Virus record (IMG/VR): IMGVR_UViG_2713896799_000023
Origin: a virus
Taxonomy: Duplodnaviria; Heunggongvirae; Uroviricota; Caudoviricetes
Length of the DNA: 64,000 nucleotides
Strand: one strand, 5' to 3'
This document shows, in pieces, positions 54,001 through 57,000 of this stretch; position 1 is the stretch's first letter, and the number at the start of each line of letters is the position of its first letter. Made by a program: the position numbers.

Positions 54001-57000
54001 TGAAAGCTCATTTGCGCAGCATGCCAGAAGAAGGAACTGTTCCCCTGATCTACCCGAGCCATTTGAGTATGAGTAGCACTGTCTGGCCTGTGGAAGGTTT
54101 GAAGAAACCCAACGCAATCATGCGCAACGACGAGACAGAAAAGTGGCTTTACCCGAACGGTTTTTATTGTGTGGTGCGTCGTTTCTCGTCGAAGGAGGAA
54201 AAGCGCCGAGTGGTAGCAAGCGTCGTTGATCCTGCTACCTTCAGTGAGTATTCAGTGTTGGGATTTGAAAATCACATGAACGTGTTTCATGAGAACAAAC
54301 ATGGGTTACCCGAGGCGCTGGCCCGTGGCTTGGCCGTGTTCCTGAACACTACCGCAGTGGATAAGTATTTCCGTCGCTTCAACGGGCATACACAGGTCAA
54401 TGCAACCGACCTCAAGATGATTAAGTACCCAAGCCGTGACACTCTGATAGAGCTTGGCAAGTGGGCTATGCAACAAGAAACTCTCACGCAAGAACATATT
54501 GACGCTAAGCTAGGAGCTCTGACTGCATGAACAACCAAAATGATTATATTGAGGCCGCTCAGCAAATTATAGCATCCTTAGGCCTGCCCAGAGCGCAGCA
54601 GAATGAGCGTTCTGCTTTGTGTTTGCTGGCACTCCTGAACCTCACACCGGGAAAAGCATGGGCCGACGCGGAAAATCCGCTTGTGGGCATTACACCAATC
54701 ATGAATTGGGTTCGGGAGCACTACGGCAAGGTCTACGCACCCAATACTCGTGAGACATTCCGCCGCCAGTCTATGCATCAGTTCTGCGCTGCTGGAGTAG
54801 CCCTCTACAATCCGGACAAGCCCGATCGCCCAGTGAACAGCCCGAAGGCTGTTTATCAGATCGAACCTGCTGCTCTGTCCATGCTACGCACTTTCGGCAG
54901 CCCGGCATGGCACGATAGCCTTGCAACCTATTTAGCCGAGCGTGAAACGCTGGTTACCCGCTATGCTAAGGAGCGCGAACAGAATCGTATCCCTGTTGAA
55001 ATTGCTGCGGGCCAGCAAATAACCCTCAGTCCCGGCGAGCACAGCGAACTTATCCGTGCCATAATAGAGGACTTCGCCCCACGTTTTGCTCCGGGTAGCG
55101 TGCTGGTCTATGCTGGCGACACTGGCGAAAAGTGGGGCTACTTCGACGCTCCACTGCTGGCCGGGCTAGGTGTTGATGTGGATTCACACGGTAAAATGCC
55201 AGATGTGGTGCTACATTTTACTGCGAAAAACTGGCTGCTACTGGTTGAGTCTGTCACCAGTCATGGACCGGTTGATGGGAAGCGGCATGCTGAGCTTGCC
55301 AGGCTGTTTGCCGGATCAACAGCCGGACTTGTCTATGTGACCGCTTTTCCAAATCGCTCCATCATGGGGCGATATCTTGGTGAAATCGCATGGGAAACAG
55401 AGGTATGGGTGGCTGATGCACCTTCTCATCTTATTCACTTCAACGGAGTGCGATTTCTTGGCCCCTACTCTACTGAATGAGAACAGGACCAGATAAATAG
55501 CCCGGCCCATGCGCCGGGTTTTTCTTTGCATATCCCCTCCTGTTATCTGCCCCCTTAAAAAATAAATCACTTTAAAAATCAGTTAAGTAATAATTTCTCG
55601 CCCTTAAAAAGCACCAACGGTATTTACATGAAAATCACCGCAAGTTATATTTATTTCAAGCCAGAAACATCGCGCCCTTACACAGGGCTACATAAATCAG
55701 TCGTACGGCGCGACTTAACCCGCCGCAAAATGCTCTTTAACAATCTGGAGCTTTACAGCGTCAATGACCTGTTTAGACCCCTACACGTAAACGTGCTGTA
55801 TCATCGGGTGCGATCCGGTCGATGAGAGAGTATCCCCGCGCGAGAGCGAGAACGGCGTGAGAACGGGCAACACTGGCAGGAAGTTGGCGCTGACCAATAC
55901 AGGGAATGTTTTGGGGTGCAGGCGGCACCGCCAAAGCGTTTCTGAGAAAGAACGGTATTGACTGCGTGTGATGTCGGGGCTATATTTGGCGAACACCTCA
56001 TAAAACGGGTGTCGGGATTGCTACCCCGCTGACAATCGAGGCGATACAGACGCGCCAGCGTCTTTTTTTGTATCGACATACACGCACATCTTATCAATGG
56101 TGGGCTGTATGGGGCCGACTTCGGTCGGGCTGGTTCCCTTGATTGCCAGTTGTAGCAACCCTGTACAGTCCACCGCCAGCGAGCTTGCTACCTCCAGCGG
56201 TGGTTATCAATCACCAATCAAGGAGGCTGCCATTATGGCTACTATCCCAGTCCTTTCTCAACCTGAAATCACCATTTCCAATGGTCGCGCTGTTACTACG
56301 TCCTTTGCCGTTGCCGAATATTTTTGCAAGCGACACGATAACGTATTGCGCGCCATTGCAAATATTGAATGCTCAGAGAAATTTAACGCCCTCAATTTTG
56401 AGGACGTTACCTACACCGACGCCAAAGGCGAACAACGCCCAATGTACCAAATCACCAAAAACGGCTTCGTTTTTCTGGTGATGGGCTTCACCGGCAAAAA
56501 AGCAGCTGCATTCAAGGAAGCCTACATTGCTGAATTCGATCGCATGGAAAAACAACTATGGGAACAGAAACAACTGGCCCTGTCTTCTCCTGCGATGAAT
56601 ATCAATTTCCCTTTGTCGTGGTTTTCAGAGCATCACCCCTACGCCACGATGAACTATGTTGATCGCAAGGTTATCAGCCTTGATGCTTCCGTGCTCTTCG
56701 ATATGCCAAGCCCAACTATGCGCATCCTCAATGAGCTACACAGCAAAGGCTATAACGTTGACGCCGCTGTCGCCGAATTTAACGCCTTCAAGCATCTGAC
56801 GGAAGAAATGCGCCGCACGCTACAGGATATTTCAAGACTGTCAGATCGAAATTCCCGAAAAGGCTTCTCGTTAAGTCTTTAAAGAACAGATCGTTTGACA
56901 ATGCTGCATTAACGGGGATATATTCTGCCTCATGGTGCTCAAAACACCTTAGCAAGTAGCGGTTACCGCGCCCGACAGACATGCGGTTTTTTTGTGTCCA

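Follow-up and report, generated by a model that had tools for sequence, protein, structure and literature searches.

The DNA considered here is a 64,000-nucleotide (nt) stretch of a tailed virus of the class Caudoviricetes (IMG/VR record IMGVR_UViG_2713896799_000023; the whole stretch is called the window below), and within it the interval 55525-56234, which precedes the first gene of a leftward early operon. Positions 55480-56240 are 100% identical to the Stx2a phages P13374 and TL-2011c and, judged by sequence, the window is an Oslovirus-type Stx2a prophage, the type of the O104:H4 and O103:H25 outbreak strains. The cro and cI genes, on opposite strands, are followed by genes for a DNA methylase and a BsuBI-type endonuclease; on the other side of the interval a Rha-family gene and an ORF6N-type gene are followed on the plus strand by kil, gam, recT, exo, ssb and more, with xis and int about 14 kb off in P13374 (Table 1). 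It follows from this gene order that the interval corresponds to the pL/N position of lambda. A structure and covariation search of the leader, which had been suggested as a check, brought out two covarying parts: a boxA-containing RNA with a helical junction (the boxA-junction RNA), homologous to nutL of phage phi80, and a module of two small RNAs (sRNAs) of the IsrK and C4 families in front of the Rha-family gene. The slot that N occupies in phi80 is taken here by the IsrK-C4-Rha cassette.

That the interval holds no N-like open reading frame (ORF), as the original prediction stated, is borne out by tblastn, Pfam, PHROGs and the annotation of P13374. With N of phi80, lambda and P22 as queries, tblastn returned a best E value of 1.1 in the window and no N homologue, in the interval or in the rest of the window; Pfam and PHROGs searches of the short ORFs of the interval and the window gave nothing N-like, and Q is the only antiterminator, with no N, in the RefSeq annotation of P13374, the identical phage. 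The lack of N, cII and cIII has already been published for P13374 and phi191 (PMC4122784) and is on record for the PA2-type phages too (PMC4587872). The accompanying statement that no ORF is arginine-rich has to be amended, as there are two such frames, RRDLTRRK in 55628-55825 and MREYPRARARTA at 55822-55860. They overlie the promoter and the structured RNA, and their variation among relatives is of the kind expected of RNA helices, not of peptides; these small ORFs have no match in Pfam or PHROGs and were rejected as candidates for N. In related loci, tblastn with the same three proteins found no N homologue save in true relatives of phi80. The sequence evidence supports the absence of a classical N from the Oslovirus-type prophage. 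A polymerase started at pL faces at least two terminators (56048-56069 and a U7 tract at about 56987-56993) before kil, gam, recT, exo and int, so that the proposed need for read-through on the early-left operon stands, and an RNA-based element is a reasonable candidate for passing the cassette terminators.

The pL transcript contains, about 75 nt from its start, a boxA, TGCTCTTTAACAA, which is an exact 13-nt match to UGCUCUUUAACAA and contains the sole exact GCTCTTTAACA in the 64 kb. Its UGCUCUUUA core is consistent with the NusB-NusE-binding consensus (PMC3177189), and binding of NusB-NusE is predicted here on that ground. It aligns with the annotated 'nutL boxA' of phi80 and is closer to consensus than the phi80 sequence. 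The homology runs through 188 nt (55731-55918), with 94% identity to the part of phi80 that bears the labels nutL boxA and 'nutL core'; the latter, CACGTAAACGTG, corresponds to a boxB-like hairpin (CACG-UAAA-CGUG) of the window. This order of boxA and a boxB-like hairpin is thus present in the pL transcript, with 40 nt between the two, unlike lambda nut, where 8 nt separate boxA from boxB and the boxB loop is GNRA-like. An N homologue together with a nut-like boxA/boxB in this interval had been named as the finding that would contradict the original prediction: the boxA and boxB are there, the N homologue is not. In phi80 the N gene starts 165 nt past the end of the homologous block, and in PA2-type Osloviruses about 105 nt more of the phi80 leader are retained, to about 30 nt before the position of the phi80 N start, after which the IsrK promoter follows. 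The homology to phi80 and these breakpoints indicate that the N gene was replaced by the cassette and nutL was kept. Within Oslovirus the boxA-junction element is nearly invariant. Neither an exact boxA scan nor a covariance model revealed a second boxA or a nutR in the pR operon of the window, an Rfam scan of 55724-55895 gave no family at E up to 10, and the region showed no tRNA- or tmRNA-like identity when searched for one.

The boxA-junction RNA proved to be a family. A degenerate pattern derived from the nutL block, which included boxA (TTTAACAA) and the 5' strand of the closing helix and left hairpins P1, P2 and P3 free, collected more than 120 viral contigs, and 121 of 132 matching loci had the downstream family signature. 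RNAalifold, run on a MAFFT alignment of 26 diverse members, gave a closing helix around P1 and P2, and P3, whose loop is GAGA or of the GNRA type, was added to this structure. In the resulting 31 pairs 94.6% of the cells are paired, versus 33-43% when the 3' partners are slid; compensatory changes, with both sides altered, occur in 18 of the 31 pairs (92 cells), and none of 500 shuffles equalled the observed pairing values. The U.UUUAACAA positions of boxA are invariant in the 26 relatives, TTTAACAA being part of the collecting pattern. A covariance model finds a single match in the window (181 bits, E 2e-40), one match in the phi80 genome, at nutL, and more than 115 among viral contigs. Family members are present in genomes of Enterobacter, Kosakonia, Kluyvera, Huaxiibacter, Serratia, Xenorhabdus and Morganella and in e14-like E. 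coli prophages, a taxonomic range that is a sample from among the matches listed, the genome-wide pattern scan giving mostly chance matches outside Enterobacterales.

The surroundings of the element are constant upstream and variable immediately downstream. A cI-like repressor gene precedes it on the same strand in 52 of 54 family loci and kil/gam/recT-type genes follow; apart from cI, no partner protein is universal within 4.5 kb. A homologue of phi80 N comes after the element in only 7 of 121 loci, and where the element is identical to the phi80 one, unrelated ORFs or the IsrK cassette set in exactly where N would start; mosaic breakpoints cluster directly past the 3' end of the element. DNA of phi80 N was detected in 77 of the 5426 complete E. 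coli genomes (always at 99% identity or more; most of the 40 records listed out of these 77 are laboratory strains), while 249 genomes have the element. The scarcity of N and the identical elements before unrelated genes argue against a phi80-type N as an obligatory partner. Of 71 distinct loci, 57 have a sense-strand intrinsic terminator within 1.5 kb past the element, a rate some three times that on the antisense strand. We conclude that the boxA-junction RNA is a widespread RNA family of Enterobacterales prophages that is absent from Rfam and nearly always found without phi80 N. In one metagenomic phage contig (L027) a weak second model match (30 bits, E 2e-4) lies 2.7 kb away from the main copy, in the opposite orientation, and could be a right-operon counterpart. 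Eight loci (1696-1908 in L013, and seven others) have, about 230 nt past boxA, a 70-amino-acid ORF with a K/R-rich N-terminus (LPKKRQKPRKQAIKEAQ); it is possible that this is an N analogue for one subtype of the element only.

The second covarying part begins with the IsrK promoter, whose -10 element stops 7 nt short of the first position of the Rfam IsrK match and which is conserved in 5 of 5 Oslovirus variants. Behind the IsrK-family sRNA comes a C4-family antisense RNA (predicted fold -43.5 kcal/mol, z -4.0) with two recognition segments: a' is complementary to a1 within IsrK and to a2 upstream of the Rha-family gene, and b' to b1 within IsrK and to b2, which covers the Shine-Dalgarno sequence AAGGAGG of that gene. 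In a sample of 14 distinct modules from Stx phages, SfV and metagenomic phages, the three copies of each site change together across the 14 alleles (among the a-site alleles are UUGCUAC, UUCUCAC, UUAGGAC, UUGGCGU, UUAGCAC and UUGAGAC). Cognate a1:a' and a2:a' helices have 7 bp in 13 of the 14 alleles, b1:b' helices 7-10 bp and b2:b' helices 9-13 bp; the means for non-cognate combinations are 3.9-6.0 bp (4.0 for a2:a', 6.0 for b2:b'). In the window the C4 pairing helices are 7 bp and 9 bp long. These explicit helix counts were used in place of RNAduplex energies, which ignore intramolecular structure and discriminated poorly between cognate and crossed pairs.

These results change the view of the terminator and of the leader around it. 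The strong terminator noticed near 56049-56069 is real (stem AGACGC/GCGTCT and T7), but it belongs to an sRNA gene with its own promoter at 55958-55986 and not to the pL leader as such, nor does the leader end there, since 165 nt more, with the C4-family RNA, separate it from the gene. The interval is not GC-rich as a whole, its GC content (0.499) being that of the window; the description is weakly true only for the transcribed part 55658-56234 (0.539). The stem-loops at about 55.96-56.18 kb are an IsrK/C4 switch and not an antiterminator, while the more general suggestion of RNA-based read-through is a reasonable one.

The closest described relative of the cassette is in Gifsy-1, where the order is isrK, orf45/STnc1160 and anrP and a fraction of the IsrK transcripts passes the terminator (PMC4825925). 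The long RNA so formed adopts a translationally silent fold in which the middle of IsrK is paired with the downstream region, and short IsrK supplied in trans opens this fold, so that the antirepressor-like protein AnrP is made and the prophage is induced, a trans-activation known from Gifsy-1 only; the authors of that work themselves pointed to the P4 CI/seqA/seqC design (PMC4825925). In the predicted fold of 55993-56250 (z -4.8), mid-IsrK is paired to sequence that precedes the ribosome-binding site, which matches 'structure A' of Gifsy-1. It is also known that in APSE phages c4 and isrK lie beside BRO/Rha genes and that Xcc1 lies upstream of an ORF6N gene (PMC7313666). The IsrK/C4 part is therefore, as homology and covariation support well, a further example of the Gifsy-1 isrK-anrP and P1 immI design. 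By analogy, C4 would repress and IsrK would activate translation of the Rha-type gene, and an antirepressor function of the Rha-type and ORF6N proteins is suggested by their sequences. A cassette of the order IsrK-C4-Ant, about 70% identical, is found in 933W-like Traversvirus phages (phage 06-3462, locus L009, 4001-4925), where it occupies the nin region, with the replication genes on one side and Q on the other, inside the operon that leads to Q and stx; its presence there means that the cassette is mobile. The Rha-family gene has an in-frame upstream ATG at 56097, inside the C4 RNA, which is the start of ORF29 of P13374, so that the deposited annotation translates the sRNA (56097-56234). 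The translation of the C4 region matches Pfam Phage_ASH (27.1 bits) and phrog_29966, and part of the sequences in these families may stem from RNA genes or from leader ORFs like orf45.

A second, paralogous cassette (56895-57812) follows immediately. Its short U7-terminated RNA carries CUCAAAA and CAAGUAG, its sRNA-Xcc1-family RNA carries UUUUGAG and CUACUUG, and both target sites recur before and over the ribosome-binding site of the ORF6N gene. A 288-nt direct repeat (56600-56887 and 57530-57817, 86% identity) encodes the C-terminal domain (phrog_17980) common to the Rha-type and ORF6N-type proteins; by sequence, these are N-terminal DNA-binding modules swapped onto a common C-terminus. The deposited coding sequence 'antB2' (56981-57127) sits on the Xcc1-family RNA.

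Table 1. Features of the early-left control region and its neighbours (positions in the window, except in the last row).
Feature	Position	Strand	Details
cro	51954-52193	-	
Candidate OR operators	52204-52222; 52231-52249		
cI	52253-52966	+	
DNA methylase and BsuBI-type endonuclease genes	53061-55480	+	
Bidirectional intrinsic terminator	55499-55520	both	closes cI/methylase/BsuBI-endonuclease operon
Candidate OL operators	55608-55626; 55632-55650		10/16 and 13/16 half-site matches, respectively; 24 bp apart
pL promoter-like site	55623-55651	+	TTTACA-17-TATATT; inferred transcription start near 55658
Hairpin GCCCUUACACAGGGC	55674-55688	+	near 5' end of pL transcript, upstream of boxA
Hairpin AGUCG-UACGGCG-CGACU + UUAACC	55697-55724	+	like first ~25 nt of HK022/HK639 putL
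boxA TGCTCTTTAACAA	55731-55743	+	identical to E. coli rrn boxA
Four-helix-junction RNA domain	55768-55880	+	covariance-model match overall 55724-55895
Closing helix of junction	55768-55773/55875-55880 and 55779-55781/55865-55867	+	
P1	55784-55795	+	phi80 'nutL core'
P2	55796-55830	+	
P3	55836-55855	+	GAGA tetraloop
IsrK-family sRNA promoter (predicted)	55958-55986	+	TTGACT-17-TATATT; 10/12 consensus matches
IsrK-family sRNA	55993-56069	+	RF01394 match 55993-56068, 61.8 bits (gathering 50), full length
IsrK decoy sites	a1 56016-56027; b1 56031-56043	+	
IsrK terminator	56048-56069	+	stem AGACGC/GCGTCT 56048-56063, then T7
C4-family antisense RNA	56093-56180	+	RF01695, 77.4 bits (gathering 45)
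C4 recognition segments	b' 56132-56149; a' 56149-56161	+	b' hairpin loop; a' junction
Target sites	a2 56183-56195; b2 56211-56227	+	b2 over Shine-Dalgarno sequence of Rha gene
Rha-family antirepressor-like gene	56235-56882	+	first early-left gene; Phage_pRha 2.7e-32; phrog_995; anti-repressor phrogs
Second-cassette promoter (predicted)	56895-56924	+	11/12 consensus matches
Short U7-terminated RNA	56931-56993	+	a1 56938-56944; b1 56952-56962
sRNA-Xcc1-family RNA	57016-57099	+	RF02221, 79.6 bits, above Rfam gathering score; b' 57063-57075; a' 57076-57082
Second-cassette targets	a2 57097-57103; b2 57120-57129	+	b2 over ribosome-binding site
ORF6N-type gene (putative antirepressor)	57138-57812	+	
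boxA-junction matches in contig L027	2915-3099; 5775-5942	-; +	

The operator-like sites noticed at about 55.63 kb are real: the two best 19-bp palindromes of the ATATCACC type (searched in the form ATATCACC-N3-GGTGATAT) in the whole window are 52231-52249, which sits between cI and cro (OR), and 55632-55650 (OL), which overlaps the -10 element of the pL-like site. From these sequences two OR and two OL candidates can be proposed as CI operators for the Oslovirus group, for which a published comparison found no operators (PMC4587872). Relatives of the Lyz12581Vzw type are unrelated to the window upstream of the -10 element and homologous from that element (55645) onward, which fits a pL transcript starting near 55658. 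The stem of the hairpin at 55674-55688 is the same as that of lambda boxB (GCCCU/AGGGC); the order of this hairpin and boxA is that of the rrn leader, and the hairpin is conserved within Oslovirus only. The following stretch, AGTCGTACGGCGCGACTTAACCCGCCG at 55697-55724, is able to form a CGGCG/CGCCG hairpin just 5' of boxA and weakly matches the start of HK022/HK639 putL, GACGAACGGCGCGTCTTTAAACC (18 nt at 94%, E 0.15); from its sequence it may be a mosaic remnant.

Upstream of pL, the type II restriction-modification pair (a methylase and a BsuBI/PstI-type endonuclease, 53061-55520) separates cI from pL, at the place where lambda has rexAB, and is apparently in one transcript with cI. The bidirectional terminator that closes the operon, directly 3' of the endonuclease stop codon (55480), has an 8-bp stem with 6 GC pairs, a T-run on the plus strand and a mirror site on the minus strand. 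Relatives of the Lyz12581Vzw type carry an additional SocA-family gene pair in this region. PA2-type phages have been described as having the BsuBI system in place of regulatory genes (PMC4587872), and Oslovirus-type ('Eru1') Stx2a phages have been reported as less stable lysogens (PMC8951638).

The arrangement shares features with several known systems and coincides with none of them. As in phi80, nutL lies about 60-75 nt downstream of pL, with the repressor gene upstream and kil, gam, recT and exo downstream. In contrast to N/nut systems, the conserved unit extends beyond boxA and boxB, an approximately 115-nt four-helix junction lying 25 nt past boxA, and only the left copy exists, unlike lambda nut. 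Like the put sites of HK022 and HK639, the element is a cis-acting structured RNA placed just past pL of an N-less lambdoid phage and followed by terminators and early-left genes, and the short stretch 55697-55724 resembles put stem I; put RNA, however, acts without host factors and is blocked by mutations in the beta-prime zinc-binding domain of RNA polymerase, whereas the element of the window has a boxA and so presumably needs Nus factors, and the right-operon copy known from HK022 put is missing. The rrn leader (boxB-boxA-boxC, acting with NusA/B/E/G, SuhB and S4) has the identical boxA, a hairpin upstream of it, as at 55674-55688, and involves no phage protein, but it has no counterpart of the four-helix junction and its complexes chiefly counter Rho, whereas intrinsic terminators lie downstream here. 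With Gifsy-1 the cassette shares the promoter, IsrK with its terminator (leaky in Gifsy-1), the structured RNA/ORF region, the antirepressor-like gene, the complementarity of IsrK to the downstream RNA and the inactive read-through fold, predicted in our case; it differs in lying at the N position of a pL operon, in encoding a Rha-family protein, in being one of two cassettes in tandem and in having no known link to antQ. In P1/P7 immI (c4-icd-ant) and in P4 (CI/seqA/seqC), too, a' and b' segments of an antisense RNA pair with upstream a1/b1 and with a2/b2 over the ribosome-binding site, and the antisense RNA is processed from the leader, as by analogy the C4-family RNA may be, by RNase P; in P1 immI it represses translation of ant, with polar termination. 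The specificity alleles of P1/P7 immI are stated to covary (Citron and Schuster 1990, in the form in which PMC7313666 cites it). Unlike in P1 immI, the upstream sites are on a separately terminated sRNA, IsrK, the phage is lambdoid and the regulated gene is of the Rha/ORF6N type and not P1 Ant.

As the probable, though by no means certain, explanation of the whole we propose that the pL leader of this N-less prophage combines a nutL-type RNA with sRNA cassettes and that read-through from pL proceeds via the boxA-junction RNA. The interval would then be the control region and 5' leader, built of stacked modules, of an early-left operon of about 14 kb. With CI bound, pL would be off and the cassette promoters, of which that of IsrK looks constitutive, would make IsrK and its analogue of the second cassette; rare read-through would yield the C4-type RNAs, which would keep the antirepressor genes untranslated. 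The a1/b1 copies on IsrK would compete for C4 or refold the long mRNA and so turn translation on, as in Gifsy-1, and conditions that raise the short sRNAs would shift the balance towards translation of the antirepressors. Upon loss of CI, pL would fire, the nascent boxA would recruit NusB and NusE, and the junction domain, alone or with an unknown factor, would stabilise a termination-resistant complex. The pL-started polymerase so modified would get past the cassette terminators and transcribe kil, gam, recT, exo and int, while a polymerase from a cassette promoter, which starts downstream of the boxA-junction RNA, would stay unmodified and mostly terminate, giving the sRNAs. N-independent antitermination by the boxA-junction RNA is what its position, its nut homology, its conservation and the downstream terminators point to. 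A bolder form of this proposal, in which host Nus factors alone make the pL polymerase termination-resistant and the boxA-junction RNA is an undescribed class of cis-acting leader RNA, a third solution independent of N and put, is one that we advance tentatively, as the less probable outcome. If it were true, phi80 'N' would be only one of many interchangeable first genes.

Several points weigh against the proposal that the pL polymerase is made resistant by the boxA-junction RNA. While the identities of the parts, their homologies and their covariation are observed, the activities of the pL and cassette promoters are predicted from sequence, and the roles of the terminators and of the pairings are predictions as well. 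Folded as a single sequence, the junction domain does not exceed shuffles in stability (z +1.4), and the constancy of boxA and of part of the closing helix is uninformative because it was fixed by the search pattern, the support coming from P1, P2 and P3. Complexes of the rrn type on boxA mainly counter Rho-dependent termination and act weakly on intrinsic terminators. The IsrK terminator of Gifsy-1 is naturally leaky (PMC4825925), the second-cassette terminator has a weak stem, and with leaky and weak terminators and two internal promoters a dedicated antitermination may be unneeded. Furthermore, the upstream ORF is fused in frame to rha, whereas orf45 of Gifsy-1 is separate and coupled; the translational details may therefore differ from those of Gifsy-1. 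Finally, an unrecognised N analogue is conceivable, N proteins being very diverse.

The most serious competitor, which we nevertheless regard as unlikely, is that the nutL-like RNA is an inert relic of the replacement of N and that the early-left genes are expressed through leaky termination and two strong internal promoters. The N gene was replaced cleanly; the IsrK terminator has a stem of only 6 bp and its Gifsy-1 homologue is read through by some transcripts (PMC4825925); the second terminator is weak; the promoters at 55958 and 56895 score 10/12 and 11/12; and near-invariance within Oslovirus could reflect recent common ancestry. A relic would not be expected, however, to be kept with 18 compensatory pair changes across many diverged lineages that have no phi80 N, among them Serratia, Xenorhabdus and Morganella prophages, and this preservation of structure in N-less lineages argues against a dead remnant. 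The mosaic breakpoints lie just past the 3' end, as for a functional module, and the boxA is a perfect consensus, better than that of phi80. Somewhat lower still do we rate a conventional N-dependent nut site served by an unrecognised N-like protein from elsewhere in the prophage or from a co-resident prophage. For it speak the N gene of phi80 at 165 nt past the homologous block, a diversity of N proteins too great for reliable homology searches, several small early-left ORFs without known function (e.g., 58107-58388, phrog_1635) and the K/R-rich 70-amino-acid ORF after the element in 8 loci; yet the window gives no N-like match, no protein family but cI co-occurs universally within 4.5 kb, identical elements precede unrelated first genes, phi80 N DNA is in 77 genomes (mostly laboratory strains among the 40 listed) versus 249 for the element, and each phage has one copy, with none on the pR side.

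Two further readings appear improbable. The boxA element might attenuate, Nus binding occluding translation or promoting Rho termination as in the suhB leader, or the RNA might be a processing or stability element or the precursor of a trans-acting sRNA. Repression mediated by boxA exists (PMC5725501), the leader comprises about 577 nt of untranslated RNA, and the direction in which the boxA element acts is a predicted one; but there is no ORF start beside boxA to be occluded, and antitermination agrees better with where the element lies, with its homology to an annotated nutL and with the terminators downstream, which leaves this reading little weight. Least of all do we expect the RNA around the terminator, or the whole leader at 55.7-56.1 kb, to be an antiterminator of the HK022 put type, as had been suggested. 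The place just downstream of pL in an N-less lambdoid phage is that of HK022/HK639 putL, and 55697-55724 resembles the first ~25 nt of putL. Against this, the RNAs at 55993-56180 are IsrK and C4 above their Rfam gathering scores, and antisense pairing to the ribosome-binding site accounts for the way in which they covary; a boxA is lacking in put RNAs, and the second put stem-loop is absent from the window. Searched with the covariance model of the upstream element, neither HK022 nor the annotated putL-like RNA of HK639 gave a match; membership in the put family was rejected, as only the first ~25 nt are alike, and the candidate at 55724-55895 is instead a relative of phi80 nutL.

That N is absent was known before, and so were IsrK, C4 and Xcc1 as curated RNA families. 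In the literature we found no paper on the structure of phi80 nutL or on an N-independent boxA element in phages, no earlier description of the phi80-type nutL as a large, covarying and widespread RNA module that is usually without N, and none of the nutL of outbreak-type Stx2a phages as the head of an operon opened by two sRNA-gated antirepressor cassettes. Coding sequences and protein-family 'domains' obtained by translating C4- and Xcc1-family RNAs can now be flagged as annotation errors. The orphan nutL-like RNA provides a defined 170-nt element for N-less antitermination, and its alignment and covariance model can be used to search other genomes. For the Oslovirus-type Stx2a phages of the O104:H4 and O103:H25 outbreak strains, the early program appears to be run without N, cII and cIII. 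The two sRNA-gated antirepressor cassettes at the head of their left operon suggest a testable route to induction independent of SOS, and hence to toxin release, since in Gifsy-1 the homologous cassette promotes induction of the prophage.

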